A model generated the notes under the pieces. The model was not told where the DNA came from. It searched no databases and saw only the letters and a program-made list of their open reading frames with translations. From a virus (Duplodnaviria > Caudoviricetes), in IMG/VR virus record IMGVR_UViG_3300030107_005298, positions 1 to 56,792 of that record: DNA of 56,792 bases; one strand, given 5' to 3'. Below, piece after piece: positions 5,774 to 56,696 of the stretch (position 1 is the stretch's first letter; each line of letters starts with the position of its first letter). The position numbers were made by a program, and so were the translations under genes.

Positions 5774-5787
5774 ACGGAGAATAAATT

Positions 5788-6024: not shown

Positions 6025-6034
6025 ATACTTAGAA

Positions 6035-7035: not shown

Positions 7036-7184
7036 TGGTTGTCAAAAAGAAAGGAAAGGGTTATCAACTTAGAACTAAAAATGGCAAACGTTTGTTAGGA
7101 AAACACAAAACTAAAGCTGGTGCTATGAAACAAGAAAGAGCCATTCACGCAGCTAAAGCGGCTAGAAGAAGGAGAGGACGATGA
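7035..7184 (+). CDS. 49-aa basic micro-protein (MVVKKKGKGYQLRTKNG...RRRRGR)
   Basis: TAATG/ATGA coupling; translated by hand. Confidence 0.65.
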   Translation: MVVKKKGKGYQLRTKNGKRLLGKHKTKAGAMKQERAIHAAKAARRRRGR

Positions 7185-7300
7185 AAATAAAATTCGACGA
7201 TGAACGCGAGGATATATTAATAAAGGAAGAGGAAAAAGATGTCAAAAAACTCAAAGTTAAAAAACCTAAAAAAGGAAAGAAAGCAAGTAAAAAGCAATGA
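7181..7300 (+). CDS. 39-aa charged micro-protein (MKIKFDDER...)
   Basis: ATGA overlap with the previous stop and GGAG upstream. Confidence 0.5.
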   Translation: MKIKFDDEREDILIKEEEKDVKKLKVKKPKKGKKASKKQ

Positions 7301-7465
7301 AGATACGGTCATCGTTAGTGACAGCGGTGATGAAATGGAGCCTATTCGTGCTCCTATTAAAAACCCTAGAAATGCTAAGCCATTGGTTAAGTCCAGTGGA
7401 GTCCTAGCGTTTAGAGTAAAGGATGTGCAAGTTTAGTTCCACATATACTAGATGGATATTTTTAA

Positions 7466-8644: not shown

Positions 8645-8665
8645 AAAAAGAGGTAAATAAAAAAT

Positions 8666-9271
8666 ATGGTAGACAAAGCAGGACAATACGGCGGTGGTTT
8701 AGAAATCACCTGTATTCTTTTCGAAGGAACATTAACTGCAACTGCTGGTACCTCAGTATTCGTCGAGAACGGCGCACTAGGAAAATTATCATTTGCCTTT
8801 ACAGGAGAACTCAAAGAAGGAGACCTCGTGGGAATTCACGACTCTACCGACAATGATTACGACGCCTGTGAAGGACTACCTGTAATGGCTGCAGCAGCAG
8901 CTACCAATGGGTGGATTGGTATTATTAAATCACAGCCTGTATGGCACAAATTGCCTGCATCAGCTGGAACTTATAATACCCACGCAACTAACTTGTCCAA
9001 TGGACATTACAGAGTTGCAACAGTGGTAATGCCTGGTGTACAAATGGCTCTGAGAGGAGTTTGCGAAGGAACAGATATAACATCTGGTTCTCCGCTAGCT
9101 TGGGATGTCTCAGCAGACGGTTGGAAAGATGCCGGTACAACTATGACCGGTGTATTCTCTTTCCACGATGGCGGTGTCGATGCACAAAATGTCTTAATTG
9201 GTGTTGGTGCAGTCGGACAAGCTGCTGGTGGCTCTGAAGGAGACATTTGCTCACACGGAGTAGTGGCATAA
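8666..9271 (+). CDS. Capsid decoration/cement protein
   Basis: Gly/Ala-rich beta-type protein between scaffold and MCP; GAGGT SD. Confidence 0.55.
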   Translation: MVDKAGQYGGGLEITCILFEGTLTATAGTSVFVENGALGKLSFAFTGELKEGDLVGIHDSTDNDYDACEGLPVMAAAAATNGWIGIIKSQPVWHKLPASAGTYNTHATNLSNGHYRVATVVMPGVQMALRGVCEGTDITSGSPLAWDVSADGWKDAGTTMTGVFSFHDGGVDAQNVLIGVGAVGQAAGGSEGDICSHGVVA

Positions 9272-30670: not shown

Positions 30671-33600
30671 TGCCAGCAGACCCAACAGATTACGTAATAA
30701 GAGTATATACAACTAAAGCGTTAGCAGAAGCAGGTGCAGATAATCAAGCAATTGATGTTGATGCATTAAATACAGGAAAAATAGCAGGTTACCAAGATGA
30801 CCAATATTATAAACAATATGAAACATATTTTTATAGAATTGATTTTAATGAACCCGCCATAGGTGTGGTAATTGACTGGGATGATGGTGAAGATAACTCA
30901 CCTGAGAAAGCAAATAGACAAAGAGTTATATTTGAAACTCCAAGATTACATACTGTATTAGAGCATATTTACACAAAAGCAGGAAGATTTTTTCCTTTGA
31001 TAAAAGCAATAAGCCCATTTGGTTATGAATCAAAATGGTATACTACATCTAATGCTAACAACGATTATAGTGCATTAGAATCAACTAGTCTTTCTGCTGG
31101 GCAAAATAATGGCTCTGTAGTTAGCGTAGATTCTACAACAGGTAATTTAAGAATACCATACTTCGCTCCAACTATATTTCCACCAAAGGCAATATTAAAG
31201 ACAGATAGAAAAACAATAATGTCTGGTATAGAGGGAGATAGTTTCTACGGCGCTGCTGGAGGAGCTGATACGGTATTACCTAACGAGGTTTACGCGTGGC
31301 ACTCTGCAGAATCATTGACATATCCATCTTCCGCGCTAAATGATGACGTGGAAGTCAAAGTTAAATATATGTCTACAGATGGGTATATAATAGAAGAGAC
31401 CATAGACACTAAATTTAGTGGTTATACAAAAGCCTTATCGAACCCAGTAAAGAAAATACTTAAAGCTGAATTAGTAAAAATGGCAACCTCAGGTAGTACT
31501 ACTGCATTAGGACCAGGTGAAAGAGTATATCTTAGAGTTCCTAAGTATGGTGCAACTACTACTTTAATGGGGAATGCAGCTGGTGCCCACGGAACTAATC
31601 CTATAACAGAAACAATAGCCGGTTCTAGTGGACAATTAGATGGACACATAGGAAACCCAGGCTCATATTGTATTACATTAAGGCGTGGTCAATTAGCAGA
31701 AGCGCTTGATGATAGCGAAACAGATATTGATGTTGATGATGGTACATTATTTGTCGCTACTGATAGAATATTAATAGACGCTGAAGTTATGACAGTAACT
31801 AACGTATCTACTAATACTTTGACCGTAACAAGAGAAACTGAAAATACTACAGCGGCCACACACGCTGATGATTCTTCGGTGTTTATATTATCACGAGGTA
31901 GTTTTAGTACGGCTTTTCTAGGAGCACACTTATGGTCAAACAATGGAGTTGTTTCTGCCTTTGGAACCGCTCCAAAAGTAGTTACTACTGGATTTTCAAC
32001 TGCAAGTAGAAATAGATTTGCAACAGCATATGGTTATCAAAGTATGACTAATGCTACAGCTAGTAACGATGGAGGTAAATTTAAGTTTACGCTCGCATCT
32101 GGTACACATCCATTTAGAGCTGGTTCGGTAATTAGAATTTCAGTGAACGCTTCTGCTGTAGATGGTGCTGCAGTGGTAACAGCGGTAGCTGGCGCAACTG
32201 CATTTACTATTAATAAAGCTTGGGTGAATAATAATATAGATGGAGCTGACAACGTAGTCAGCGAATCTGCAGCTTTTGCGGCACTAGCAGATGGGTTTGG
32301 ATTAGAAAATACCGTAGGTGTAGCTACAGCAGCTTCTCCAAATAGATTAGCCACGTGGTTCGTGCCTGACTTTGACGAAGATACGTGCATTACGAACGTA
32401 AGTCAAGGATGGCCTATACAAGAATATCAGGATTCTGCTTTCAGAACACAATATGATGCAAGTGAGTCTCGCACACGTTCGCCAAACCTTACCATACCAG
32501 AAAGTAATAGTAATTTATTTTTAGATGCGTCTAAAGGGTTTTCACAATCTACTACCGATTTAGATAATGCTACAGATAGGATAACTGCAAATAGTGTTAA
32601 TAAATATATAGGTCAGTTAAGATATACACAGTGTCCTTTTAGTACGTACGCAAACCCGTGGAATAAAACACGCTCGTACTTAGATGGTAATTTAGCTGCT
32701 ACAGCGGACGGTCAAGATGGATTAGCAACTAATAGATTTTATGATGATTATAAATTACTTAGGTTACAAGTTAAAGATGACCGCACAGGTGCTACAGATG
32801 CAGGTACAGGAAGTGGACCATTTTCACAATTAGAAAACTTTACTGATTACTCTCAAGCTACGAACGCAACTAAGAATTTATTTGATGAATTAGATTATGT
32901 AAATTTATTACAATTTAGTAGTAATTCTGGTACATCGTGGGCATCGAAAGAAGGATTCAATGATGATACTAGTGATGATGCTAGTGGCACATATCCATTA
33001 TTCGGTAACTTCCCTGGCTTTACATTAGTGGCAGGAGCTCACAGTGGAGGAGCTAAAAACTTTATTTTAGTTACAAAAGAATTAGAAAAGTTTGATAGAA
33101 TATATTTTAGTATGGCTAATAGGTTTGGTCAAGGGCAAGACCAACATACGTCAGGAGATGATAGAGCTCAAGGTGGTAAAGTTAAATTAACAGTTTATTA
33201 TCCGGCAAGAGATAATGAGTTAGCTCAAATACACTGGAAACCACTAGAGTTTATAGATAAAACTACTGCTGGAATAGAGGATAGTTCTTTATATGTTTCA
33301 GGTCCAATAGTGTTTGATGCTCCTGGAGATTGGGAGAAAACTAAAACTAGTAGCATAACTTGGCCTGATTTTGTAGGAAGTAATGCTAATTGGACTGTTG
33401 ATTCATATGGTTTACTTATAGGCATTGCTTGGGAAGCTACAGTGAGCTCTACCTTTGAAACCAACTCACCTGCTATAAATTATTTGTATCCCTACGATAA
33501 TAGACACTCGCAATTGATAAAAGTTAACGACCCAATGCACGTAGATATATCTGACATAACAGTTACACAATCATTAAGTTTTACACGTAATGGTAAGTAC

Positions 33601-36551: not shown

Positions 36552-38423
36552 TTATATATCGCATTTGTCACCACTACAGGCTAATTCTTTGGCACCTTCT
36601 GTGTTATCTTCGGTTTCATACTTACTGAGTTGACTATAATCGATAGTCGTATTGTATCCGTAAGCCATATATTCTTCCTTTGTTATCTCTTTGTAGGGGG
36701 CTAGTTTATACTGCCCACCATCATAAGGAAGGAAAGATACACCATTAATAATATCCCAATTTTGGTATACCCAGTTACCGACTTCAAACCATTCATCATC
36801 TTTAACATATACAGTAAGAGAAGCATTGTGTTCACACCAGTGTTCTTGAATTCTTTTATACAGTTCTAGTTGCTCAATAGCTCCGATATCTCGCCTAGTG
36901 AGACTATCACTAGGAGAACTAACAGCATATTCGCAAACATACGTAGTAGCGAGTCCATCTTTTTGTCCAACTTCGGGATAGAACTTGACTCCCTGGTCTT
37001 TTAACATATAAAAGAGTGGGTCAGTAGCCGAAATTCTATACCGGCGTAGATAGTATTTGGAATAACGTGGATGCATACCCGATGCTGAGTTCACTAATTG
37101 ACTGACTGTACCACTTGGTTTGATGCAAGTTGTAGCCTTTGAGTGTTGTACACCCAGTGTCTCAGCAGCCTTGCGAGAAATACGCAATACGCGCATTTTA
37201 AGGGCCTTTAAAGCGTCCGAAGTCAGTGCCGGTAGGTTATCACATATCCCAGTCAAACTGACGCCTAAAAGCCGTTCTACGTCACAATTCTTTTTCCACT
37301 TGGGTCTTAGGTATGGAAAGTCAGTAAATGTAGATTGTATAACTCCCATCCACGCAGCTGTCTCTACCTTATCAAGTAATGTATCTAGGTTATCGTAATC
37401 TTTTACTACTATCTCTGAAAGATTACAGAACTCCTGGTCTCTCAGCATAATCTCACCACAGGGGTTAGTTCCCTCTATTAAGTTACCATTGCGTCTATTA
37501 GGTGAGGAGTTGCGTGCGCCTTCTAGATTAAATATACCGCGCTCTCCTGTACCCGAAGCTGCTAACGTAGCCCATTCTTTGAGAAACTCTACCGCTGTGG
37601 GTTTAGATTCATATACTGCTGAGTTGTTGGCCATTGCTCTCCTAAGAGGAAAAGGCCATATCTTAGCGTCTCTCATCTTATCATCATCTAAGTCTGATAA
37701 TGATATCTGAGAACTTCTGCGAACTCCTCCTGATACAACTATCTCTGCTATCTGATTACAGATATCGTGACAGTCTATCGCTCGAAGTTTTCGTCCTTGT
37801 GCTTTACCAAAGACTTCTCTTATAAATTGATGCAGTCTTATAAGTGGTGCTGGACCAGAGGAACGACCTCCCATTGTCGCAAGACGCGCACCTTCTGGTC
37901 TTAACTCCGAATAATCGAAGTGTATATGTTTACCCTCGTACAGAGAGTTCATAAGCACCTTTACCGAGTCGGCCCAACCTTCTTTGGAATCAGGAACCAC
38001 ATAATCTGGTAACTCTTCTCCTGAAAGTTCAGGCACGACTGGAAGTTTGTTGACGTGTTTTTCCGAAACACTAAACCCAAAGCCGGTACCACACATTAGT
38101 ATATGCAAGCACTCTGCAAATGATTCTATAGAATCTATATTTGCAAATGAGCAATTGTATATACACGTGTTGTCTTTTTCGGCAGGTGGTCCAGCAGCCC
38201 ATAACATACGCATACTTGGCATAACCTCAAATGAGGTAACATACTTTTTTATCTTACGTATTGTCTTTTTAGGTATATCAGGTTGATGTTTAGTTATAAA
38301 CCCAATATATCTATCGACCGTTTCAGGCCACGTTTCTCTACGTTTTTTATCATCTATCCATCTTGAGTATGTCCTTACGTAGACAAACTCTGAACACGCA
38401 TTCGGAAAATTTACGTCAACCAT
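36552..38423 (-). CDS. nrdJ: Class II (B12-dependent) ribonucleotide reductase
   Basis: YNCS, GGVRRS, TNPCGEI, CNLSE, KPSGTVS, C-terminal ACSGDKC; no beta subunit nearby. Confidence 0.92.
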   Translation of the reverse strand: MVDVNFPNACSEFVYVRTYSRWIDDKKRRETWPETVDRYIGFITKHQPDIPKKTIRKIKKYVTSFEVMPSMRMLWAAGPPAEKDNTCIYNCSFANIDSIESFAECLHILMCGTGFGFSVSEKHVNKLPVVPELSGEELPDYVVPDSKEGWADSVKVLMNSLYEGKHIHFDYSELRPEGARLATMGGRSSGPAPLIRLHQFIREVFGKAQGRKLRAIDCHDICNQIAEIVVSGGVRRSSQISLSDLDDDKMRDAKIWPFPLRRAMANNSAVYESKPTAVEFLKEWATLAASGTGERGIFNLEGARNSSPNRRNGNLIEGTNPCGEIMLRDQEFCNLSEIVVKDYDNLDTLLDKVETAAWMGVIQSTFTDFPYLRPKWKKNCDVERLLGVSLTGICDNLPALTSDALKALKMRVLRISRKAAETLGVQHSKATTCIKPSGTVSQLVNSASGMHPRYSKYYLRRYRISATDPLFYMLKDQGVKFYPEVGQKDGLATTYVCEYAVSSPSDSLTRRDIGAIEQLELYKRIQEHWCEHNASLTVYVKDDEWFEVGNWVYQNWDIINGVSFLPYDGGQYKLAPYKEITKEEYMAYGYNTTIDYSQLSKYETEDNTEGAKELACSGDKCDI

Positions 38424-38427
38424 TGTA

Positions 38428-38808
38428 TCAGCCCTCTATTGCAACCTTTTTCATATCAGGTTTGGCAACCTTTTCTACTGATACGTTTAATACTCCATTC
38501 TTAAATGTTGCTTTAGCTTTGTCTGCATCTAAAGAAAACTTAAATGTCCTATTAAACTTATAGTTTCTCACGCCGTTCTTGGCGGTTATTACTATATTAA
38601 ATTCATCAACCTCTAAGTTGATGTCTGCTAGCTCTACTCCTGGCAAATCCATTGTTATATTAACAGCATCGCCAGTCGAATCAACCTCGACATTTCTATT
38701 AGCCGCGTCTTTCCTAGGTTTATATTTAGGTACATTGTTGTACATAATATTGTTTAGGCCAAACATTGATTCAATTAAATCTTGTAAATAATCTTCGTCT
38801 CTTCTCAT
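38428..38808 (-). CDS. Small heat-shock protein (Hsp20/alpha-crystallin)
   Basis: DLPGV...I.L.V and ATFKNGVLNVSV motifs. Confidence 0.9.
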   Translation of the reverse strand: MRRDEDYLQDLIESMFGLNNIMYNNVPKYKPRKDAANRNVEVDSTGDAVNITMDLPGVELADINLEVDEFNIVITAKNGVRNYKFNRTFKFSLDADKAKATFKNGVLNVSVEKVAKPDMKKVAIEG

Positions 38809-39828: not shown

Positions 39829-42081
39829 TTAGAACAGTCTCAGCTGTTTTGTTCCGCTCCTCAGACCCATATCATCCCAGTCAAAAACACCGGCTATATC
39901 TGACATAGTTCTAACCAATCTATCCGCGTAGTAGTCCCTATCAAACTTAACATTCATATCAGTGGTTTCTATGTATGGTTCTACTTCCATCGGAGTTTGC
40001 TTAGAGTTAGATACTACCCAACTTATTTTTGTACCAGGAAGCCAAGGATATCCTCGGGCCTGAAGTTTAGCAGCAGCTTGAACACCCGCGTTTGAATCGG
40101 GATTTACATACTCGCTTGGAGACCTGACACTCTTGGTAACTATCAAGTCTTCTAAATCAACTTCTCCATTCTTTATTTCTTTTACTGCTTTTGTCACAAG
40201 TTTAAGTGCATCATCTGGGCGACTATCTAATATTAGACGTAACGATTGTTCTAATACTTCTCGTTGTCTTTTAAATGAGTCACCACGCTTGAGCTCATAA
40301 CCCTTGACGTAGAATTCTTTTTTGGGCCATTCTACTGTAGCAGCGTATCGTTTCTTTGCGCCGTGTGTAAAGAAAGAACTCAGAATTTTTTCTAACTCCA
40401 TCTCTAATCCACGCGCTGACAGTTCTTTGGCTAATTCGTGGGGGTCATCGTCCGTAAGTTGTACGAACACACTGTCTGTGTCCCCATATATAGTAGTGTA
40501 ATTCCTTGATTCTAACTCATCGTATACATCCTGTATACCCTTTCTAGCAAAGGCAGTAATACTACCACCTATGGATGGGTTAGTAAATCTATAGAAGTCA
40601 CTAGCCATAACTCCATAGAAAGAATTCATAAGAACCTTGATACTGTATTGCAGTCTATCGTTGTAATCTCCATTCTTTTCTATTTTGAGTTTAGTTGCAT
40701 CTCTCCATTCCCATAATGCTTTAAGAATCTTGGGAACGATTGATTCTTTGTCCAACCTGAAGTAAACCCCGAGGGGGGAGCGAACGCTATCACCGGTTTC
40801 AGTTTTAGTGAATGTTGTTGGACAAATGTTATTTTTAATCATAACACTGGGATACATTGATTTAAAATCAAATATACCAACGTTGTGATAAATACCTGGT
40901 TTGAAAACCTCAAAGACGGTCGCTCCTTTAATTTTCTTAGCCTTGTTATTCCAATTGTTTTGTGGAACTGCAAAGCCTTTCTTATCGAAACGTCTAATGA
41001 GTAGGGAATCGACGATGCGAGAAGTAACGGGGGCAAACGAATGTTCTAGGGGCAAGTCACTTGCAACGCTCAAAGCCATAGCTTTAGATATAGATGCAAT
41101 CTTATCGTGCATAAAAACATCGTAGGTAACCTTGACATCTTTCTTGCAATACTTGATTACAGATAAACGTCTGTTAGCCCACTCCTCTTCTATGCGAGAT
41201 GCATCAACGTTGTCTTTAGACCCGACACCCAGAAGTTCACCCACGAACCCAAGTGATTCCTGTATAGGTTTGAGTTCTTGTTTTACTTGTTGCCAAGTGT
41301 CAACGAATATTCGTCCTGACGCGAACCAAGACTTTATTCTTCGCTTGTTATCCTCACGCATCCACGGTTCATCACCCTCTCTACCAATTCCCATCTCTAC
41401 ATTTAGAGATTTAGCTTTCTTCATAAGAACTGGCATATCAAACCCATTACTATTGTAACCGGTTATGATGTCAGGGTCTACCGCGTTTATATACTCGACG
41501 AAGTCCTCTATCATTTTAGCTTCGCCACTAGCGTTGGTAAATACAACACCAGCGTTGTCGTTTAGTTGCGCAGCTATGCAGTACATCTCCTTAGTACGGA
41601 GACTACATTCAATATCAAACGTTAGAACGTCTAAGTTAACATCGAATGATTTACATCTCTGTATACTCTGTACCGAATAACTACTATCGTGTTCTATTTC
41701 TACAAATGCTCCTAAATCATTGTCGTACAGGTATCGTAACTGATACAGTATGTCTGCACTAAAAACTGTTCTACCTCTGTTTATCAGTTTCTCCCTGAGA
41801 CGAGGCATATGTTTAGGATGCCGTAAGTAGACTTTAACACAATCGTACTTCTCCTGATAGTGTTCTAACTCTACGTTTTCTCCTATCTGTGCACCTGCCA
41901 TTGCAAGTAAACGACGGTCGTGTGGGGAAGGTCTAGCTAGGTAAAAGTACGCTTTAAAGTTTTCCTGAAAGAATACTTTAGTTTCTCCATATTCAGTCTT
42001 ACCGTACAACCTAATGATAGGCTCGTCTGACACAGGGTCAGTAAAATAATCTACATTTGTCAAGAATACTTGCGTTCTCAT
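39829..42081 (-). CDS. polB: Family B DNA polymerase, archaeal type
   Basis: ExoI FDIE, ExoII GYNSNGFD, DFKSMYPS, K..MNSFYG, YGDTDS, KKRY; archaeal-like N-terminal AYFY and ADI..RYL.D. Confidence 0.95.
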   Translation of the reverse strand: MRTQVFLTNVDYFTDPVSDEPIIRLYGKTEYGETKVFFQENFKAYFYLARPSPHDRRLLAMAGAQIGENVELEHYQEKYDCVKVYLRHPKHMPRLREKLINRGRTVFSADILYQLRYLYDNDLGAFVEIEHDSSYSVQSIQRCKSFDVNLDVLTFDIECSLRTKEMYCIAAQLNDNAGVVFTNASGEAKMIEDFVEYINAVDPDIITGYNSNGFDMPVLMKKAKSLNVEMGIGREGDEPWMREDNKRRIKSWFASGRIFVDTWQQVKQELKPIQESLGFVGELLGVGSKDNVDASRIEEEWANRRLSVIKYCKKDVKVTYDVFMHDKIASISKAMALSVASDLPLEHSFAPVTSRIVDSLLIRRFDKKGFAVPQNNWNNKAKKIKGATVFEVFKPGIYHNVGIFDFKSMYPSVMIKNNICPTTFTKTETGDSVRSPLGVYFRLDKESIVPKILKALWEWRDATKLKIEKNGDYNDRLQYSIKVLMNSFYGVMASDFYRFTNPSIGGSITAFARKGIQDVYDELESRNYTTIYGDTDSVFVQLTDDDPHELAKELSARGLEMELEKILSSFFTHGAKKRYAATVEWPKKEFYVKGYELKRGDSFKRQREVLEQSLRLILDSRPDDALKLVTKAVKEIKNGEVDLEDLIVTKSVRSPSEYVNPDSNAGVQAAAKLQARGYPWLPGTKISWVVSNSKQTPMEVEPYIETTDMNVKFDRDYYADRLVRTMSDIAGVFDWDDMGLRSGTKQLRLF

Positions 42082-42083
42082 AC

Positions 42084-42971
42084 CTACTCCTTTTTATTTA
42101 ATCCCCAGCATTTATCCGCAAAGTTGCAGTAAAGACAGTGCCAGTCAGATTTGACGATAGTATCTCCTATCTTTTTCGTTTTCTGAAGTGCCGTTTTACC
42201 TTTGTTTGGGAATGCTTCGTATGGCCGCTCTGGTAAATTACCGAGAGCTATTTCGTCCATAACTTTCCACATCCTCTCAATGAGATTGTGGACGAACGTT
42301 TCATTCAGCTTGAGGACGTGAATCGCCTCTTCACTGTTGTTCTTATTATAGTAATGCAATACACCATATTTAACACTTTCGCCGTACATACCTAATTGCA
42401 GCTGTGCAAAGTGGTCGTACTTGGGAACATCTTTAGCACCAAACCAATATATGTTACCCTTCTTATTCTTTCCTGTACTATATGGAAAGTCTGCACTACT
42501 TTTAAACTCAGTGACCATACAATCGGTATCAATACCTAGTAACTTCTCGTCACCGAACTTTCTTTTTAATATACCATCTACTCTATAGTGTAGTAAGAAA
42601 TCTGTTTTATGGTCATCTTTCTTTGGTATAAATATCTCACCAGGAGCTTCTTCATAGAACTTCCAACCATCTACTTGTCTATATCTATCAGATATACCCT
42701 CGTGTATGGCATCTCCTAAAGCGAATATCTTTAATTGCTTTGGACCTATAGACGGGTTAGTTTCCTTCTCTCCCGAGACTGAGTAGAATAACTGACGTTC
42801 ACAACGTGTTGCGTCTGACGCATAAAACGTACGTCGTGTTCTATTACTCTTCCACTGGGATGGTTCGTCTAGATAGTTAAACAAAGTTTGCGTATCTTCT
42901 TTAGACAAATCCATTATACTTTCGTCGTATAGCCCTTTTATCTTATCAAATTCTTCTAATTTCATTACCAA
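42084..42971 (-). CDS. Cas4-like PD-(D/E)xK exonuclease
   Basis: C.R..Y, G.AIH, DG..EFK, QL..Y and C-terminal C..C.....C (1+3 Cys Fe-S pattern). Confidence 0.8.
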   Translation of the reverse strand: MVMKLEEFDKIKGLYDESIMDLSKEDTQTLFNYLDEPSQWKSNRTRRTFYASDATRCERQLFYSVSGEKETNPSIGPKQLKIFALGDAIHEGISDRYRQVDGWKFYEEAPGEIFIPKKDDHKTDFLLHYRVDGILKRKFGDEKLLGIDTDCMVTEFKSSADFPYSTGKNKKGNIYWFGAKDVPKYDHFAQLQLGMYGESVKYGVLHYYNKNNSEEAIHVLKLNETFVHNLIERMWKVMDEIALGNLPERPYEAFPNKGKTALQKTKKIGDTIVKSDWHCLYCNFADKCWGLNKKE

Positions 42972-43168
42972 TCAACCTCCTCGTGGTTAACAATTGTCTC
43001 TTGTTTGCATTTTATGCATTCATATATACTTCTGTCTATACTCTTGTATACTAATGTACACACAGAATAACAGCGTGGACACAATGTAGAACCATCGGGG
43101 TACCAATTCATAGCAGTGTCGCCCACGCGAGAAGTATGGCCAATCCTACAGATAGGATTGTAATCCAT
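42965..43168 (-). CDS. Zinc-ribbon protein
   Basis: CPRC...CIKC. Confidence 0.6.
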   Translation of the reverse strand: MDYNPICRIGHTSRVGDTAMNWYPDGSTLCPRCYSVCTLVYKSIDRSIYECIKCKQETIVNHEEVDW

Positions 43169-43187
43169 TCGGCTTCACTGAAGTACA

Positions 43188-43517
43188 TTATTTTGGGCCT
43201 TCCTTGCCGTAATATGGGTCATCTTGAATCTTAGTCTTACCAATAACATTACCAGCGTTTATGTTTGCCATATCGTGGTATTTCTGTAGTGTAGCGTTCA
43301 ATTCATCCACCCACTTGCTAATTATAGTTTCTCCAATGCGTTCATCATTTAAGTGAAACTCCATTATCTCTAGTGTCGCTTTAAATTTATCGAAATCGTT
43401 CATTCTCTTTCCTCCTTTTCCATCGCACGTACAATTATAATGTCCGTGTACACAGTTGCAGATGTATATCTTAGCTGGCTTGAGTGGTTCATTTACTCTA
43501 AAACCCTTTATTATCAT
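43188..43517 (-). CDS. Hypothetical protein with Cys-rich N-terminus (start uncertain)
   Basis: MIIKGF...CNCVHGHYNCTC; alternative start at MNDFDK. Confidence 0.45.
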   Translation of the reverse strand: MIIKGFRVNEPLKPAKIYICNCVHGHYNCTCDGKGGKRMNDFDKFKATLEIMEFHLNDERIGETIISKWVDELNATLQKYHDMANINAGNVIGKTKIQDDPYYGKEGPK

Positions 43518-44103
43518 CTGCCACCTGTAAATATTTTTTGTTTGCCTCGACAATTGGTCCGCGTAAATGTTTAGGTATAAACTGCAAACCAGTAGAAGCA
43601 AACGTCAACTCATTAATAAACATACGAATATAAAAGTTTTTATCTTCACCAATATAGTGATATCCTTTAGATACATCGTCGTCATAATCCCTGACAAAGT
43701 TTATTATTTGGTACGCTCTACCTAATGCTCTAGCGTATTCGTCACCATCTGGTGAACATCCTAGTATTCTTGAAACCATTAGACCGACCGATTCACCTGA
43801 ACCTTTACAATATTCTATCATAGTTGTAGTTGTGTGTTCTTTAGTTTTTAAATCAGTCAGCATAGCTTGGTGAAAGTCCATAAGCCACTGCCCCTCGAAG
43901 TTATGTCTATCACACACTTCGTAGAACTGTTCTATTATCTTTCTCCATTTCTTGAAATCATTCCAACCGGCATCGCCTTCTACCATTTCGTCTATGACCC
44001 TCAGATATGCATACAGTTTATATATGTCTTCTCTAATATTCTTAGGCCATTCTTGTACACATTCAAAGAATGTCGTGCTGTACTTTTCCATTATTTCTTT
44101 CAT
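43498..44103 (-). CDS. Phytoene/squalene synthase-like (CrtB/HpnD family) prenyltransferase
   Basis: YSTTFF, LYAYLRVIDEMVE, YC.G....VGLM, ALG.AYQ.INF.RD..DD; GGAGG SD before ATG 44103. Confidence 0.85.
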   Translation of the reverse strand: MKEIMEKYSTTFFECVQEWPKNIREDIYKLYAYLRVIDEMVEGDAGWNDFKKWRKIIEQFYEVCDRHNFEGQWLMDFHQAMLTDLKTKEHTTTTMIEYCKGSGESVGLMVSRILGCSPDGDEYARALGRAYQIINFVRDYDDDVSKGYHYIGEDKNFYIRMFINELTFASTGLQFIPKHLRGPIVEANKKYLQVADDNKGF

Positions 44104-44216
44104 AGTACTCCTCCTGCTAGATGCATATAACATTCCCTACAGTATGGATTACCATTGACATCTCGGTATCTAACATACTGCGGTGATAGTTTCCATCTAC
44201 ATAAGTTACATTTCAT
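44100..44216 (-). CDS. 38-aa zinc-finger micro-protein (MKCNLC...YCREC...)
   Basis: Two CxxC motifs; GGAGG SD; ATGA coupled to the synthase. Confidence 0.6.
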   Translation of the reverse strand: MKCNLCRWKLSPQYVRYRDVNGNPYCRECYMHLAGGVL

Positions 44217-44304
44217 ATTATCCTCCATATTATATTAAATATGCCACATAGTATATATACTCGTATCTGACTATTTAATGGAATCTCCATAGGTATGATA
44301 TCAC

Positions 44305-44433
44305 TCATCGTGGGTCTATCTCCCTGATAGGCCAATAGCTGTTCTTATAGAACTTACCATTCTGTATCAAATTGTGATAGCAATCACACTCAGGTTCTAA
44401 ACAGTACTGACATTTACCTTCAATTCTTATCAT
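44305..44433 (-). CDS. 42-aa Cys-rich micro-protein (MIRIEGKCQYCLEPECDC...)
   Basis: Translated by hand; GGTGA SD. Confidence 0.5.
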   Translation of the reverse strand: MIRIEGKCQYCLEPECDCYHNLIQNGKFYKNSYWPIREIDPR

Positions 44434-44501
44434 TCTTCACCTTCTTCTTTTTCTTTCGTTGTTGTTTAAACATCTCTTTTTTAGCCGCTATCCAACTCAT
44501 C

Positions 44502-45845
44502 TTACCCATCTATATGTCCTCCATATACCTGCAATGTCATAGGTATATTCTTATGTTCACCTGTAAAGGGGTCTGTATACATATGTAAATCATCCTTCTT
44601 ATATTCTTCTGCAATATGTTCTGAATTAGTTTCCATATTCGTAATACAGGCATCTACTAGACCTTTCCAATCGACTGAGCGACTGAAGTCAAAGTCTTGT
44701 GTTCTGTAATACTTGTTGGTTTTATTCAGACGCCTAACAAAATTAGTATCTACTAAACGATTCATTGTGTATTCAATCATCTTCTTTGTTCTGTTGATAC
44801 CCTTGCTAGATAGATGGTCAGTAATCTCATCTATATGTACTGCATCTGATTCGCTTTCGGTTACTAAATCACCCCATACTTCCGCCTTAGGTACGAAATC
44901 AATAATCTCTTTGCCAATTGGATTGATACCTATCGACATATCCCTGAATATATTACCTGCGAGTTGGAACCCAATAAAATTATCTGCGGGTGTAGAGTAT
45001 ATATAATCTAAATCTTGTACTCTCTCTCGGTGGTGGAATTTTGTGACTGCCTCTATAACATCGAAATAATAATCTATAAATGTATTAGACATTGTGTACG
45101 TCGCTGGTATAGTCGTACGTATTATATCTGCACCTGGATTTATAACTCGTTTCTCTAACTTCATAGCTTCTCTGATTTGATTTTTCAAACCACTAGTTTC
45201 TATACGTGTTAGTTTTACAAGCTTATCATCAGGTAACATACGACTAATTGCTTTTAAATGGTGAACCTTTTCGTTTAACTCCTTGCTAGAAAACGTAGGC
45301 AAACTTATTACTCTACGTCTCATTTCAACAGGAAGCTGTGGTAGACTTTCGTTTCCATCGGCAAGGTTCGTCATAATAGGCTTAGGGTCGAGTATGATTC
45401 TTACAGTGCGTCTACCCATCTCGTTTTTACTGTATATATATGGTCTATCCTCCATCCACAGCTTTATCATAGCTTCTAGATTTTGTGATGTCAATATATT
45501 CTGCAACTCAGGTATTACACAGCGTTTAGCTTGTGTTATAATAGTCGCACTATCTTCTGTAAGATGCCCTTTGGCTGATGATGAATTTAACCATAGTAAG
45601 TCAGAGTTGCGTCCCGCGAGTCCCTCGTCCCCGTATATCAACGCTGTAACTGCGTTTAATATCTTGGTCTTAGCACTGCCTGACTCACCTCTGATACATA
45701 CTGACTTACCAGCAATCGCCCACAATAATAATGTAAGTATTCGAGTTTCGTGGTTTTCTAATATAGGGTCACGTTTACCTAACACGAAACAACTTTCAAA
45801 GTATCGGTGTAAGTCGTTAAGACTGCTCTTTCGTTTCTGTATCAT
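44502..45845 (-). CDS. AAA+ ATPase, putative MCM-related replicative helicase
   Basis: Walker A GESGSAKT, degenerate Walker B (VIPE), Arg finger MRRR, C-terminal wHTH; start moved to the MIQK ATGA overlap. Confidence 0.65.
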   Translation of the reverse strand: MIQKRKSSLNDLHRYFESCFVLGKRDPILENHETRILTLLLWAIAGKSVCIRGESGSAKTKILNAVTALIYGDEGLAGRNSDLLWLNSSSAKGHLTEDSATIITQAKRCVIPELQNILTSQNLEAMIKLWMEDRPYIYSKNEMGRRTVRIILDPKPIMTNLADGNESLPQLPVEMRRRVISLPTFSSKELNEKVHHLKAISRMLPDDKLVKLTRIETSGLKNQIREAMKLEKRVINPGADIIRTTIPATYTMSNTFIDYYFDVIEAVTKFHHRERVQDLDYIYSTPADNFIGFQLAGNIFRDMSIGINPIGKEIIDFVPKAEVWGDLVTESESDAVHIDEITDHLSSKGINRTKKMIEYTMNRLVDTNFVRRLNKTNKYYRTQDFDFSRSVDWKGLVDACITNMETNSEHIAEEYKKDDLHMYTDPFTGEHKNIPMTLQVYGGHIDG

Positions 45846-45937
45846 AGCATCGCACACATTTGGCATAGCTTGTAATCATCTAAACTTGTTAGACTTTTAC
45901 ACTCTACACACATCCCTGTATCAGAATATTGCCACAT
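45842..45937 (-). CDS. 31-aa zinc-finger micro-protein (MWQYSDTGMCVEC...LCQMCAML)
   Basis: Two CxxC motifs; GGAG SD; coupled to the helicase. Confidence 0.55.
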   Translation of the reverse strand: MWQYSDTGMCVECKSLTSLDDYKLCQMCAML

Positions 45938-45939
45938 AA

Positions 45940-46320
45940 TTACTCCTTAGTCATCCCTCGTTGTTCAGAGATTATCTGACTTGCACTTTTTATTTCTGGA
46001 CCTTCTGACATAGCCTTTTCCTTTTCTGCTTCTTCACGTTTCTTTGTCAGGAACTCATCCCACTTCTCGCTCAATTCGTTTTCAGTCATAAATTCTTCAA
46101 CGGATTGTACGTTAGTGGTAAACTGCCCTTGCATATTTTGCATTTGCATACCCATTTGTTCCTGTCTATCAACGTATTCCTTTATTGCTTTGATTAAAAA
46201 GCTATAGTTTTCAAGCATATTAAGACTTGTCAGTAGTTCACTTTTCTCGTCTAGCCACTTCTCGATTGTATCGAGCCGGCTTTCTAACTCTTTATATTTT
46301 CTACTTGTTACGTTACTCAT
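45940..46320 (-). CDS. Coiled-coil hypothetical protein
   Basis: Heptad-rich ORF with SD. Confidence 0.6.
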   Translation of the reverse strand: MSNVTSRKYKELESRLDTIEKWLDEKSELLTSLNMLENYSFLIKAIKEYVDRQEQMGMQMQNMQGQFTTNVQSVEEFMTENELSEKWDEFLTKKREEAEKEKAMSEGPEIKSASQIISEQRGMTKE

Positions 46321-46756
46321 TTTTTTCTCCTATTTTTTTCAGCTCATCTACACGTAGGAACGCGTAGTGACCTAATTCTAATGCACCCCTGTCCGTACGT
46401 GCACTTTTGGCAAAGCGTACGGTGGCCTTCTCAAGGTCTGCGAAGTAAATTCCGTCAGTAAAGTTAAAAACAAAGTAAACTTTGTGGCCTAAACGTATCA
46501 GGTTTAGTGCCTTCTCTATCTTAATTGACGGGACCATAGTATCGTCGTACGCATCGTGTTTGTTACGTCGTGACTTAACTTCCACGAATGCAGAACGTTT
46601 ACGGTCCTTTGCGTGAGCACAATAATCGAAATGATTATACTCGCTCATCTTTGTGAACGTACTCCACTTATCTTTGGGTGCGTTGGATTGGAAAACTTCT
46701 ATAGCTTCCATCTCCTTATTAAGGCCCCATTTTACATCTTTTGTTGTATCTACCAT
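46313..46756 (-). CDS. PD-(D/E)xK nuclease
   Basis: E...FDY...FVEVKSR, FNFTDG. Confidence 0.7.
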   Translation of the reverse strand: MVDTTKDVKWGLNKEMEAIEVFQSNAPKDKWSTFTKMSEYNHFDYCAHAKDRKRSAFVEVKSRRNKHDAYDDTMVPSIKIEKALNLIRLGHKVYFVFNFTDGIYFADLEKATVRFAKSARTDRGALELGHYAFLRVDELKKIGEKNE

Positions 46757-49461: not shown

Positions 49462-50150
49462 TAATCTTCACCACTCCATTCAGGTTGGTCGAGAAACATA
49501 GCTGTGTGTTGGATAGAATCCAATTCATCTTCGTGTCTATTTACCATAAACACTCTGTATCTTAGACGTGAGTCCTGTTCTCTATCATCCTCGTGAGAGT
49601 TAAACTTTTCTATCTTGCCATCATTCCATATGAACGAAGTATACGAACGTACAACGTGGTCACTATTACCATCTAACCTATGTGCATTGTTCCAATAATC
49701 AGGGAACTCAGCCCCTCTACGCTGTAAGTCATACCACATATTATATACTGCCATATTACTTGGTTCTCTTCTCGCACGTGCACTAGTGACCGCATTCCAC
49801 AGGTTCGATGCCCCAAATCCACCTAAGTGATAGAAGAACTTTGTGTCTGTAAGTTTAACCGGTATACGTTCACCACGTGGACTACATCGTCTTGGGTATG
49901 ATTTACTATGTAGTAAAGCGTAGCCCTTGCCCTTGTTACTCCAACGTTCGACTGCTTTAATCATCTTGTGAGGCATTATAGGTAGCTGTGAGCGTTGCCA
50001 TTGAGGAAAGTGCAACATATACGGCTGTCTATCCTCGAACGCAAATAAACCTGTCAGGTCACGCCCACCGTGTGGATAGAAGAATGCGTTTGCATCATCT
50101 AAGTTTTCTGTCCAACTCTTGTCGGCATCTAGTAACATTGTCCTCGTCAT
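49461..50150 (-). CDS. Hypothetical protein coupled to the amidotransferase
   Basis: ATGA overlap with 50147-51397. Confidence 0.65.
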   Translation of the reverse strand: MTRTMLLDADKSWTENLDDANAFFYPHGGRDLTGLFAFEDRQPYMLHFPQWQRSQLPIMPHKMIKAVERWSNKGKGYALLHSKSYPRRCSPRGERIPVKLTDTKFFYHLGGFGASNLWNAVTSARARREPSNMAVYNMWYDLQRRGAEFPDYWNNAHRLDGNSDHVVRSYTSFIWNDGKIEKFNSHEDDREQDSRLRYRVFMVNRHEDELDSIQHTAMFLDQPEWSGED

Positions 50151-51397
50151 TGATGGTCCTCTACGTACTTAACGATTTCTTGGTATTTAACTGTATAGTT
50201 GGAAACGTCACCTTTTCCTATATCATCCGTAGTAACCCACGCATCTGCATTTAGATAGCCTTCCAAGTATGTACCATACGCAATAGGAACATCACGTAGA
50301 ACCACCTGTTGGTGTCTATCCGAGTATGAAGATACGCAATCTAATATCTCGTGTGAAAATTGTCCATTGAATATAATATCCTCATCGTATACGCAGAAGT
50401 TTTCTATGTCCTCAAGCACTCCCGAAAATATATCATCTACGTCAGTGCTAAACTCAGACGTTAATGAAGTCATAGCTTCTTTGGAAGCTACACGTTCTCT
50501 ACGTTTAGTTTCGTTCTTCGATATCGAACAGCTATCGCTCACATCATCGAGTGAATCCCAATCATAGTAGTTGTAGCCATTTGCGTAGCCACCATAGTAT
50601 GTGACTCCTCCTCCTTTATATACGTAGGCTTTAGGTGTGAAGTCCTCTACATTTACAATGTCCATACCATTGTCCCCTTTATATACTACGTTGTATATAA
50701 CACCACCTTCGGGTGATGCTATGTGCCTTGCTTTAAATAGGTCTGCCCCGAATAGTCCGTCGCTTTTTATATACCCCATATCCTCTAAGCTGGACTTAGA
50801 CGTGCTACCGTATATACTTATGTTGTCCTGTGCATCTAAAGTTTTCATCATATAGAAACTTGTGCTGTTGTTCTTCAAGTAATACAGGTTCTCTGAGCTG
50901 TGCATATATATGAATATCGAGTATGACCCCGTCAATTCCTCTACGCTTTGCTTGATTGCGTCAAGCTCCTCACTGCCCTCACGTATGTAGTGGTCTACTA
51001 ACGCAGGAACAATCGCACTATCTGTAACAGCTTTGTAGTCAAAGCCATACTTAGCTTTCAATTCACCATCGTTATTGATGATACCGTTATGCACAATCGT
51101 GCAGGTATCATTCGAGAACGGGTGGTTGTTCTCATTGTCCTTCTCACTACCCTGCGTAGCAAGTCTATTGTGACCCACTAACCAATTACTTGGTAGTGCG
51201 GACAATACGTGCTTGATGCTCAAGTCCTTCTTGTCCTTGAGGTCATCGTATGCTTTGCCTACCTTCCATTGGTAGGAACTGCTGAATATACCGGTTGCGT
51301 CTGCGTTCGACCTAGAACCCTTCTGCAACATTTCAATGAAGTTATTTACGTTGTCATTGGCCAACGAATCGCTCATCACGAATTGTATCTCACACAT
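50147..51397 (-). CDS. Class II (Ntn) glutamine amidotransferase
   Basis: N-terminal MC, GHNRLATQG, NNHPF, HNGII, TDS. Confidence 0.9.
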   Translation of the reverse strand: MCEIQFVMSDSLANDNVNNFIEMLQKGSRSNADATGIFSSSYQWKVGKAYDDLKDKKDLSIKHVLSALPSNWLVGHNRLATQGSEKDNENNHPFSNDTCTIVHNGIINNDGELKAKYGFDYKAVTDSAIVPALVDHYIREGSEELDAIKQSVEELTGSYSIFIYMHSSENLYYLKNNSTSFYMMKTLDAQDNISIYGSTSKSSLEDMGYIKSDGLFGADLFKARHIASPEGGVIYNVVYKGDNGMDIVNVEDFTPKAYVYKGGGVTYYGGYANGYNYYDWDSLDDVSDSCSISKNETKRRERVASKEAMTSLTSEFSTDVDDIFSGVLEDIENFCVYDEDIIFNGQFSHEILDCVSSYSDRHQQVVLRDVPIAYGTYLEGYLNADAWVTTDDIGKGDVSNYTVKYQEIVKYVEDHQ

Positions 51398-52742
51398 TAT
51401 TTATCACCTCCTTTCGTGTTATATGTGTATCGTAGTTTGTAACTAACCAATCTCTCACCTGTGGTGAGAACTGTCCTGCAAAGTCCTTTATAGTAATCAG
51501 TCCGTGTGCGTCATCTCTGAACCTCAACGAACGTGGTCTGTAAGCGGACTTGCGTATGAACTCATTCCAAAACTGTATGAACAGTTTGTAATCCGAAGCA
51601 ACCTGCTTGTATGCATTCCTGCTCCAATACGTATCGTCTACGTAATTGCGTCTGTATGTTAACGGCCTATACAATCGGATTTCTATACGTTTGTTGTCAG
51701 GCAGTCCCATAGGACTCCAATTAATCCACGCATATCTACCCATCTCAGAGCCACGTGTAGCACGTGACCTGTGTCTATCGTAGGTGTAATCACGTTTCTT
51801 ATCCATCGCCCATTGACCTGCCCAAGCCACGTATGAATCTGTCCAACCACAAGCGTAAGACCTCTGCATTTCTGTGAAGTAATTGAACTCGTCAGACATA
51901 CGTATTAGGTTATCGAATCTTTGCATAGCCTTCCATACGTTTTTCTGTCGGTTCAGGCTCACGCCTTCCATCTCGTAGTGGAAGTGCCATCCTACGTTGT
52001 TGGTCATATTCCAACCATTGTTACCGAACAAGTTACACATCTCATCTATCGTGTCACCTAATAGGTCACCACGCATTGGATGTGTCACATACTCCGTGCC
52101 GTAGTTAAGAGAACCATCCTCTTTAGCCTCCGCAATACGATTGTATAATGCCGATGGCATTAACTCACGCATAGGTTCACCTTCTTCTGCCTCGAACTCT
52201 ACACCTACGTAGGTTCTGACAGGATACTTCCTGAACGTGTTTGTTTCAATCTTGGCGAATCTATTGTGCCAACGGTCAGCTCTGTGCTGATGTGAACACG
52301 CACAATCGTCACATACATATGCGTCTATGCTGTCAATCCACTCTGCATCATCTGTGTGGCCTACCCAACTACAATCGTGACAATGTGCCAACTCATCCGA
52401 GTAATACTCGTGGTTGACGCAGTCACCGTTGGATAACTCAGCCAAATTGTCATTGAATGCGTAGTCACCGCTCCAATCACAGGTGAAACAATGGTCATCC
52501 AGCGTATGTTGACCTACACGGTAGCCATCTACTGTTGCCACTAACTCCCTGACAATGTCACCACTCCACTCACACGTGGGTAGTTCCGTCAAACAGCAAT
52601 CACATATATCTACGTCATCGCCCTCGATGGACTCCACGTTAGTAGCTGGTTCATTTCTACATACATCACAAATGATGTCATCGTTTTCTGATTCCATATT
52701 TTTTATCTCCAAAGGTTTGTTAGGTTCATTCAAACTCTTCAC
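51390..52742 (-). CDS. Amidoligase (COOH-NH2 ligase, glutamine-synthetase fold) with N-terminal Cys-rich repeats
   Basis: GVEFE, EDGSL, EYVT, GWHFH, RY.WIN, IEIRL motifs; CxxC/CxWSG repeats. Confidence 0.85.
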   Translation of the reverse strand: MKSLNEPNKPLEIKNMESENDDIICDVCRNEPATNVESIEGDDVDICDCCLTELPTCEWSGDIVRELVATVDGYRVGQHTLDDHCFTCDWSGDYAFNDNLAELSNGDCVNHEYYSDELAHCHDCSWVGHTDDAEWIDSIDAYVCDDCACSHQHRADRWHNRFAKIETNTFRKYPVRTYVGVEFEAEEGEPMRELMPSALYNRIAEAKEDGSLNYGTEYVTHPMRGDLLGDTIDEMCNLFGNNGWNMTNNVGWHFHYEMEGVSLNRQKNVWKAMQRFDNLIRMSDEFNYFTEMQRSYACGWTDSYVAWAGQWAMDKKRDYTYDRHRSRATRGSEMGRYAWINWSPMGLPDNKRIEIRLYRPLTYRRNYVDDTYWSRNAYKQVASDYKLFIQFWNEFIRKSAYRPRSLRFRDDAHGLITIKDFAGQFSPQVRDWLVTNYDTHITRKEVINNV

Positions 52743-53206
52743 TTTGTGAAGAGGTTTGAATTAACCGTAAAGCCATTCTCAACAGGCCACCAATAAGGGT
52801 AGCTCTCTATCTCCTGCGTAGACAGAATGGCATCGTCTACAAAGAGTCGTGCGTAGAAATCGTAATCCTTACGCAGTAGGTTCACACGGTGTGACTTGTG
52901 TAACTCAGGTTGGTGTAACCACTTAGGTATACTTAGCTGAGAGTAATTCACATCGTAGAACTCCATCGTGTTTTTGTATCCACGTGACTTCCATTCGTCA
53001 ATCATCACGTTTACATACACACGTAGTGCTTGTTCGTAACCTTTCCACATCTGCGTAGCAGGGTGATTGACCCACCCCTTGTGTTTGTAGTCAGGTGAGA
53101 GTGCGTTGAGTATTTGCATACCCTCCACTCTTTGCTTACCGAGTCGTCGATAGTCTAACGCTTGTGCAGACCTTACAAAGTCTGCGTATGGTAGGAATGT
53201 TTGCAT
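52739..53206 (-). CDS. Pyrimidine-dimer DNA glycosylase-like protein (EndoV/MSMEG_6728-type)
   Basis: MQTFLPY.DF..SA..LD..RLGKQRVE, HPA..MW.GY, SHR.NLLRKD. Confidence 0.85.
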   Translation of the reverse strand: MQTFLPYADFVRSAQALDYRRLGKQRVEGMQILNALSPDYKHKGWVNHPATQMWKGYEQALRVYVNVMIDEWKSRGYKNTMEFYDVNYSQLSIPKWLHQPELHKSHRVNLLRKDYDFYARLFVDDAILSTQEIESYPYWWPVENGFTVNSNLFTK

Positions 53207-56345: not shown

Positions 56346-56696
56346 CTATGCCTTCAATTTACTGAAGACAGGCTTCTTCGGATGTTTCCCAGCTTTCCAT
56401 TCAGCTAGGACAGTGTCTTTGTGGGCTGTAAGGCCCCACTTTTCACCGTTATCCTTCACACCACCATACCGCCATTGCTTAGTCTTGCATTTTTCACGAG
56501 AACAACTGCAAGAATAAAGTTCCTGACTTTTCTTGGTGCGAGGCTTCGAAGAACGCTTACCCTTTTTCTTACTGTCATTGCTTAAAGCTCTAGTAAGATT
56601 ACCCTCTGAACGCTCTAAAAGAGCTTCCAGATGAGCCACAACTGTTTTGAGCTGACGCTCAATTTTGTTGAGTTTGGTTTCGACTTTTGTTGCCAT
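56346..56696 (-). CDS. Basic early protein (copy 2), homologue of 69-413
   Basis: MATKVET... N-terminus nearly identical; ELYSCSC and KWGLTAHKD conserved. Confidence 0.85.
   Translation of the reverse strand: MATKVETKLNKIERQLKTVVAHLEALLERSEGNLTRALSNDSKKKGKRSSKPRTKKSQELYSCSCSREKCKTKQWRYGGVKDNGEKWGLTAHKDTVLAEWKAGKHPKKPVFSKLKA

Follow-up and report, generated by a model that had tools for sequence, protein, structure and literature searches.

A compact squalene/phytoene synthase-like gene in the replication block of a marine tailed virus, candidate for a miniature isoprenoid enzyme

Phytoene synthase (PSY) has been described as a first committed, rate-limiting step (PMC9039723). Among viruses, our full-text searches on auxiliary metabolic genes, phages and virus-encoded carotenoid genes returned a single relevant system, the giant ChoanoVirus, the other matches being unrelated. 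This virus of the sunlit ocean infects a eukaryote and is reported to carry its phytoene synthase within a whole pathway, together with a rhodopsin (PMC6789865). The gene reported here is likewise virus-borne, but it is a single, shortened gene and belongs to a tailed virus of a prokaryote, with a genome of about 57 kb. It occupies positions 43498 to 44103, minus strand, of IMG/VR record IMGVR_UViG_3300030107_005298, a virus genome of 56,792 bp (CheckV completeness 93%) that was analyzed at full length and is called the window below. An earlier note, made from the letters alone, had described it as a compact phytoene/squalene synthase-like gene that fits both Asp-rich motifs into 201 amino acids; its translation, its Pfam match and a predicted fold resembling that of Staphylococcus aureus CrtM confirm this description.

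Our main finding is that the kept residues, strong purifying selection over hundreds of variants and confident core fold of this protein argue for an active enzyme using prenyl diphosphates, for which head-to-head condensation would be the simplest reading. With moderate confidence, we regard it as a working miniature class-I enzyme of the SQS_PSY family, a head-to-head synthase that would feed host carotenoid enzymes and play a role in sunlight stress. If active, it would rank as the smallest squalene/phytoene synthase family member known, would define a minimal catalytic core of about 200 residues that lacks the third diphosphate-binding arginine, and would be the first accessory gene of the carotenoid/isoprenoid pathway described for prokaryotic viruses in the full-text literature searched. 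It would also offer a direct handle on how viruses reprogram the isoprenoid flux of marine hosts that have not been cultured and may be archaea; pigment, retinal and membrane lipid are conceivable end products. The full-text searches gave no paper pairing phytoene synthase with magroviruses, and none pairing it with archaeal viruses or marine group II (MGII) archaea among the matches listed; the main texts of two papers on Poseidoniales viruses mention neither squalene, phytoene, carotenoid nor isoprenoid.

The closest described structures are S. aureus CrtM (PDB 2zco, 3ae0 and 3adz) and CrtM-like enzymes (8is6-8isa and 5iys), which share the all-helical fold of the viral protein (Z 21.8-22.5, root-mean-square deviation (rmsd) 2.3-2.9 A over 194-201 residues). 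CrtM is nevertheless only some 20-24% identical and has 287 residues against 201; its D52 is replaced by Glu, its H18 by Tyr and its F26 by Val, and it has two internal stretches and a region after about residue 260, containing R265, that are missing in the viral protein. The CrtB/PSY models (NF042419, NF045686 and NF045921) belong to the same Pfam family and share the same two motifs, but the viral protein reaches only 27-33 bits where their cut-offs are 480-550. The C-terminal part of PSY includes an amphipathic last helix that a modelling paper proposes to face the membrane (PMC13304436), and this part is absent here. The best NCBIfam models are HpnD and HpnC, which belong to the three-step route to squalene in bacteria, and HpnC (PDB 4hd1) aligns with Z 20.6; the viral records, however, are without the HpnE-type oxidase of that route (PF01593, none of five). 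The nearest non-viral homologues, at 27-38% identity, come from Thermoplasmatota, Poseidoniia (bins labelled MGIII included), Sulfolobales, Nanohaloarchaea and Saccharimonadia (Patescibacteria).

The profile search that the earlier note had proposed places the protein in SQS_PSY (PF00494; E-value 1.9e-24, 87.3 bits against a gathering cut-off of 26), and a six-frame search gives 80.8 bits. Its best PDB matches by sequence are the CrtM-type phytoene/dehydrosqualene synthase 5iys (E-value 8.8e-8) and S. aureus CrtM. A strong ribosome-binding site, AGGAGG, lies a few bases 5' of the ATG at 44103; an alternative in-frame ATG at 44133 would add 10 residues (211 in all), but relatives begin MKEIM. 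The gene and its two motifs are as follows.

43498..44103, minus strand: synthase gene P0001, 201 amino acids (open reading frame (ORF) translation; PF00494, 87.3 bits; AlphaFold2 pLDDT 94.9; CrtM Z 22.5)
43978..43992, minus strand: Asp-rich motif 1, D38-E-M-V-E42 in R35-V-I-D38-E-M-V-E42 (DxxxE, not DxxxD), read from the sequence and aligned to CrtM D48..D52
43675..43689, minus strand: Asp-rich motif 2, N135-F-V-R138-D139-Y-D-D-D143, read from the sequence and aligned to CrtM D172..D176

Residues were paired by HMMER alignment to the CrtM chain, in native CrtM numbering. CrtM S19, S21 and F22 correspond to viral S9, T11 and F12, and Y41, R45, D48 and D52 to Y31, R35, D38 and E42. Further on, Y129, Q165, N168, R171, D172 and D176 pair with Y98, Q132, N135, R138, D139 and D143; the equivalent of Y183 is also retained. 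Among 35 family members, 48 columns are invariant, active-site residues included: R35, D38, Y98, Q132, N135, R138, D139, D143 and Y191, the last being the Tyr of the CrtM Y248 region. The catalytic tyrosine Y98 is invariant in the 60-sequence alignment as well. The change from Asp to Glu in motif 1, to which the earlier note had drawn attention, is real and conserved, with D38 invariant and both E39 and E42 present in at least 90% of the 35 members; because Glu can also bind Mg2+, it is a conservative departure and not a loss. A second viral clade (P0122, L119-L121) has a canonical motif 1, DNIVD. In CrtM, D48, D52 and H18 are named among the metal/diphosphate residues, and the arginines said to bind the diphosphate are three, R45, R171 and R265 (PMC13304436, a modelling paper). 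The H18 position is a nearly invariant Tyr in the viral family, and the F26 position is Val. F26 restricts CrtM to C15 substrates, so that the smaller residue may allow C20.

The structure prediction also bears out an isoprenoid-synthase fold. The AlphaFold2 model, built on a 60-sequence alignment that took in canonical homologues, has eleven helices, a mean predicted local distance difference test score (pLDDT) of 94.9 and a predicted template modelling score (pTM) of 0.91. In a Foldseek search of the PDB, the best 13 matches (E-values up to 1.1e-4) were CrtM, CrtM-like enzymes and HpnC; BFVD, the viral structure library, gave no match at E<=1e-3. VIA-align superposes the model on CrtM 3ae0_A with Z 22.5 and an rmsd of 2.6 A over 201 residues, covering CrtM residues 11 to about 260 of 284, while Z is 17.7 for human squalene synthase and about 14 for chain-elongating polyprenyl synthases. 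The short C-terminus reported in the earlier note is real and is conserved in the viral family: the protein stops near CrtM residues 258-260, and therefore has no counterpart of R265.

The compact family is common in surface-ocean metagenomes. A word-indexed search returned 244 clusters at E<=1e-3, the best 120 of which are all 194-237 amino acids long (most of them 194-206), 59-98% identical, of marine source and on contigs of at most 73.7 kb; some of these carry the label 'phytoene synthase' from JGI automatic annotation. An exhaustive search of 1.84 billion representatives yielded 1146 proteins at E<=1e-3 but only three at E<=1e-30, namely the family's own representative (65% identity), an intermediate clade (45%) and one fragment. 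The next full-length protein has 264 amino acids (39% identity, E-value 4.6e-26), and this library holds no close full-length or fused form. The second viral clade, at about 42% identity and 218-222 amino acids, keeps a short amphipathic tail. In IMG/VR, the gene occurs on 29 viral contigs of 19-70 kb, which are referred to below as the loci.

The cell genomes searched did not yield the compact family. When 185,579 species were scanned, with one genome each and a pattern that fits most compact-family members too, 384 relatives were recovered, the best 80 of them at 27-37% identity, and 85 of the 86 cell ORFs recovered have at least 267 residues. In 301 Poseidoniia genomes, the best synthase match is 38% identical and lies in frames of at least 303 amino acids. 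A phylogeny that combines 15 viral sequences with 86 from cells, obtained by a quick search and subject to a warning on long branches, unites the viral rows in one clade (support 100) on a long branch; a donor lineage was sought in it, but the viral clade has no specific cell sister. Comparison by tblastn of the synthase and of TerL with 50,697 phage records gave no match, and PHROGs has no family for the synthase or for eight structural or unknown proteins of the window. The matches of the window family B DNA polymerase (PolB) reach only 21-26% identity and involve haloarchaeal viruses, E. coli Pol II, cyanophages and Salinibacter phages.

The gene evolves under purifying selection, with a median dN/dS of 0.13 and a maximum of 0.26 (94 pairs with 0.05<dS<2 from 22 viral coding sequences); between the window and locus L095, dN/dS is 0.035. 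The gene thus has the marks of a viral auxiliary metabolic gene: it resides in a bona fide virus genome, in which TerL, tape measure and PolB are all encoded, it has viral flanks, and it is maintained by selection.

The locus itself is not a chimeric insert, a possibility that the earlier note had raised: the same gene order is found on five other IMG/VR contigs, and independent runs bridge both junctions. Among seawater runs, record 12 of X5 and record 21 of X7 span the 3' end of the gene and record 4 of X11 its 5' end, while contigs of independent runs (X5 and X11) cover all 30 bins of 41500-46500. Nineteen seawater runs, belonging to at least 13 studies, contain near-identical DNA, with at least half of the sampled words present. 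In three runs, contigs join position 43823 to 44006 and so leave out 182 nucleotides of the gene, but the shorter arm of this joint matches over just 26 letters; it may be a divergent allele or an artefact, and such joints often come from other organisms.

Carriers of the gene are mosaics. PolB lies within 10 kb downstream of the synthase in 28 of the 29 loci; in 23 of these 28 it is 21-26% identical to that of the window, whereas the synthase is 40-65% identical. Conversely, the synthases of L106 and L109 are only 57-60% identical to that of the window, although both viruses are its close kin (PolB 82%, neighbouring ATPase 90%). A complete 67-kb genome, G404, has counterparts of 17 of the 71 window ORFs. 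Six of these are 59-78% identical (the synthase, the ribonucleotide reductase (RNR), the UV glycosylase and three small ORFs of the structural module); for PolB and the tail genes, identity falls to 24-30%, and no tblastn match links the TerL, portal or capsid of the two viruses. This pattern of identities suggests that the synthase gene moves among co-occurring viruses. As unrelated viruses share it at about 60% identity, its role would be repeatedly useful to viruses of sunlit waters. The three small structural-module ORFs (window 5276-6725, plus strand, and G404 7135-9042) are 67-78% identical; since they are alike while TerL, portal and capsid are unmatched, mosaic exchange goes beyond the synthase. 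Separately, contigs of other strains break off at 44134-44501, upstream of the synthase (loose ends at 44031-44179 in X5, X7 and X11). This segment, where relatives also have differing small ORFs, looks like a hot spot of gene replacement.

The synthase sits in a minus-strand block that comprises a class II RNR, Hsp20, PolB, a Cas4-like nuclease, zinc-ribbon ORFs, the synthase, a P-loop protein, then a PDDEXK nuclease, an amidoligase-GATase (glutamine amidotransferase) pair and a pyrimidine-dimer glycosylase. Its placement inside a replication operon, proposed in the earlier note, holds, as PolB, the Cas4-like nuclease, the class II RNR and a prim-pol-like gene are in the same-strand block, where the synthase is the lone accessory metabolic gene. 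The principal neighbours are listed here.

44100..44228, minus strand: zinc-ribbon-like (CxxC...CxxC) mini-ORF of 42 amino acids, whose TGA overlaps the synthase ATG (ATGA)
44502..45866, minus strand: P-loop protein of 454 amino acids beside the synthase (phrog_12057, E-value 6.2e-14; tblastn match in 19 of 29 loci)
42084..42971, minus strand: Cas4-domain (PD-(D/E)XK) exonuclease (phrog_1990, E-value 5.4e-17)
39829..42081, minus strand: family B DNA polymerase (PF00136, E-value 1.7e-45; phrog_262, E-value 5.5e-64)
38428..38808, minus strand: Hsp20 small heat-shock protein (PF00011, E-value 5.8e-11), at most 10 kb from the synthase in 23 of 29 loci
36552..38423, minus strand: class II (B12-dependent) ribonucleotide reductase (phrog_367, E-value 2.1e-157; Pfam)
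52739..53206, minus strand: pyrimidine-dimer DNA glycosylase of the T4 endonuclease V type (PF03013, E-value 1.2e-23)

The 42-residue ORF is also present in L093 and L094; at other loci its place before the synthase is taken by different small ORFs with the same terminal ATGA overlap. In 18 of the 29 loci, a match to the UV glycosylase, at a median identity of 61%, occurs no farther than 10 kb from the synthase. Neither the neighbouring ATPase/P-loop protein nor the prim-pol-like protein has a relative in the PDB. Pfam scans, which covered 61 of the 71 ORFs of the window, revealed no further isoprenoid or carotenoid family, in agreement with the earlier note, and neither the CrtI-type oxidase (PF01593) nor polyprenyl synthase (PF00348) was found in five whole, near-complete records, that of the window included. 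A search of the records for the rhodopsin family gave no match, but the positive control was likewise silent, which makes the result uninformative.

The scheme that follows is inferred as regards the substrates, the product, the ability of the enzyme to complete the reaction although the C-terminal arginine region is missing, and the physiological purpose. Two all-trans prenyl diphosphates, geranylgeranyl diphosphate (GGPP) or farnesyl diphosphate (FPP), would be bound with Mg2+ held by D38/E42 and N135/D139/D143, and the S9-T-T-F12 flap, R35, R138, Y98 and Y191 would be used in catalysis. Head-to-head joining would give prephytoene or presqualene diphosphate, and then probably phytoene or dehydrosqualene. 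Because desaturase, cyclase and GGPP synthase are all lacking from the virus, the product would be passed to host carotenoid enzymes, and the accessory gene would raise flux through the committed step of the host pathway. With the UV-damage glycosylase and Hsp20, the enzyme may form part of a sunlight-stress set in surface-ocean viruses, by which the infected cell would be protected.

Several observations weigh against this scheme. The Pfam match is limited to protein residues 6-154, that is, profile positions 2-175 of 263. The NCBIfam scores are far from their equivalog cut-offs (HpnD 57 bits against 279, HpnC 49 against 250, CrtB 33 against 550), as are the remaining ones (31 against 480, 27 against 500 and 19 against 287, CrtB and squalene synthase models included); since all fall below, the names CrtB, HpnD and HpnC cannot be given. 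Enzymes of this family usually have 270-330 amino acids. By comparison with homologues of 270-290 amino acids, an internal stretch of about 15-25 residues is absent after motif 1, another of about 25 residues after motif 2, a gap common to some short cell forms (236-261 amino acids), and so are the last 30-35 residues (the R265 region and the final helix). Enzymes of different chemistry are nearly as close in structure (YisP Z 20.6, carbazole prenyltransferases Z 18.3). Together, the lost R265 region, the Glu of motif 1 and these near-equal scores leave real room for an altered chemistry. Marine viruses often encode Hsp20 and UV-repair proteins, which makes the sunlight set no more than a thematic link. 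A host among Poseidoniia, moreover, would already have full-length SQS_PSY genes of its own, which occur in one to five copies in 199 of the 201 Poseidoniia genomes searched. Finally, contigs from RNA libraries match only at 44508-44668 and 45845-46188, none of them over the synthase, and even these may stem from DNA carry-over.

The best surviving alternative, which we consider possible but clearly less probable than the reaction set out above, keeps the fold and changes the chemistry: an HpnD-like stop at the cyclopropyl diphosphate, a YisP-like hydrolysis to the alcohol, or prenyl transfer to a non-isoprenoid acceptor. HpnD and HpnC do outscore the CrtB models (57 and 49 bits versus 33, 31 and 27), but this ranking means little when every score is far under its cut-off. 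YisP aligns with the lowest rmsd (1.9 A), and the carbazole prenyltransferases involved are LvqB4 and CqsB4. The loss of the R265 region, the Glu equivalent to D52, the nearly invariant Tyr in place of H18, and the long, well-supported branch apart from all 86 cell homologues would fit an altered reaction too. On the other side, both Asp-rich motifs, Y98, the S-x-T-F flap and Y191 are kept, which is the full set that one would expect for condensing two prenyl diphosphates. YisP, furthermore, is not known to have the second Asp-rich motif, which the viral protein has.

A rather unlikely variant accepts the head-to-head chemistry and gives it a harmful or remodelling purpose: GGPP or FPP would be drained from the synthesis of membrane lipids or lipid carriers, or the membrane would be loaded with an apolar isoprenoid, which would help take-over, superinfection exclusion or release. 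Archaeal ether lipids are made from GGPP, the synthase is among replication genes and not late genes, the virus supplies no downstream carotenoid enzyme, and scans of 61 of the 71 window ORFs and of 67 G404 ORFs showed no recognizable lysis enzyme. Co-occurrence with the UV-repair glycosylase and Hsp20, however, fits cell protection better.

A further proposal, which we hold to be improbable, comes from a Cys/His-rich motif that follows the synthase.

43188..43517, minus strand: downstream ORF P0271, 109 amino acids, whose start overlaps the synthase stop by 20 nucleotides and which opens with a Cys/His-rich motif
43416..43472, minus strand: the motif, K-I-Y-I-C-N-C-V-H-G-H-Y-N-C-T-C-D-G-K, conserved downstream of the synthase

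The pattern [YW][IV]CNCxxGHxNCxCDGK occurs once each in 10 of 30 sources (the window and the 29 loci), always downstream and on the same strand, and the synonymous changes at third codon positions indicate that it is translated. Its carrier differs: in L106 and L109 it is the synthase itself, with the motif fused in frame to the C-terminus, while in the window it is the next gene and in L098, L100 and L117 a zinc-ribbon ORF; L108 is also among the loci with the motif. P0271 has no match in Pfam, PHROGs, the PDB or the Atlas, and the predicted complex of synthase and P0271 scores 0.02, which counts neither for nor against binding. At its 3' end (43498-43510, minus strand), the synthase reads AAA GGG UUU UAG A, and the frame of the Cys motif is +1. 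A +1 slip of Phe-tRNA on UUUU at the stop codon could thus fuse the synthase to the downstream 103 residues, for a total of about 300 amino acids. This UUU-UAG site presumably resembles the +1 site of prfB. The compact enzyme might be a viral protein or peptide prenyltransferase, and not a carotenoid enzyme, and could lipidate the Cys/His motif on itself or on the small proteins with this motif; if so, the lipidated motif would be a virus-made lipid anchor.

It is highly improbable that the gene is a captured host gene that has decayed to an inactive form, or the product of a faulty assembly. Such a reading could draw on its being about 70-130 residues shorter than 85 of 86 cell homologues and on the 182-nucleotide joint in three runs, but it is already contradicted by the conservation data (dN/dS 0.13, 48 invariant columns in 35 members, a constant length of 194-206 amino acids in most of the best 120 of 244 clusters), besides a structure model confident throughout and the same locus on independent contigs and runs.

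The earlier note had spoken of a probable archaeal virus, and the support for this is only indirect: four of five near-complete related carriers encode aIF-1A, but the gene is absent from the record of the window and from its own lineage (none of five records, two of them at least 90% complete). We consider an archaeal host for the window virus somewhat more probable than not, and a host among Poseidoniia considerably less probable than an archaeal host in general.

G404 31917-32249: aIF-1A, match to an archaeal/eukaryotic-type initiation factor model

The carriers in question, G403-G406 (not the window, G000), are the 67-70-kb tailed viruses of loci L128-L131. They have an HK97-type capsid, and aIF-1A, of 110-118 amino acids, lies between the P-loop protein and PolB (NF003084, E-value 3.4e-31; TIGR00523, 2e-25); the families matched include no bacterial IF-1 model. 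The viral proteins are 45-56% identical to those of Poseidoniia (144 of 151 genomes), 48% to that of a Thermoplasmatales genome and 33-46% to those of four other archaea. Phylogenetically, the viral copies group together and are not nested in Poseidoniia, and the tree gives them no firm place among archaea. The literature matches listed include no paper on aIF-1A in such tailed viruses.

The MGII host implied by the earlier note is not supported: TerL has no match in 401 Poseidoniia genomes, and the synthase is at most 38% identical to Poseidoniia homologues. In the ESM Atlas, the window TerL leads to virus clusters, two of which have members labelled Bathyarchaeota, which serves as a lead only. 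We found no tRNA gene in the window and, in the 61 of 71 window ORFs and 67 G404 ORFs scanned, no peptidoglycan hydrolase family.

A magrovirus as first defined was also considered and rejected, with genomes here of 57-70 kb and MCM (PF00493) and PCNA (PF00705) in none of five records, the controls being positive; a chaperonin is absent from the five relatives too. MCM and a sliding clamp are present in all 26 original magroviruses (about 100 kbp), and a chaperonin in 12; RFC, AEP and RadA are likewise part of the definition, in all members, and the study reports no accessory metabolic genes (Philosof 2017, PMC5434244). The CobT-VWA and GT4 genes of G404 recall the description of magrovirus group E (PMC11706807), and this is a resemblance only.

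Two minor observations concern other parts of the window. A glutamine amidotransferase (PF13522) lies beside an amidoligase-like protein (phrog_7469) at 50147-52742, minus strand; such an amidotransferase-amidoligase pair is discussed for Vyasavirus (PMC11706807). At opposite ends of the record, the ORFs 69-413 and 56346-56696, both on the minus strand and both with an AGGAGG site, share 73% protein identity, and may be paralogues or a diverged terminal repeat.

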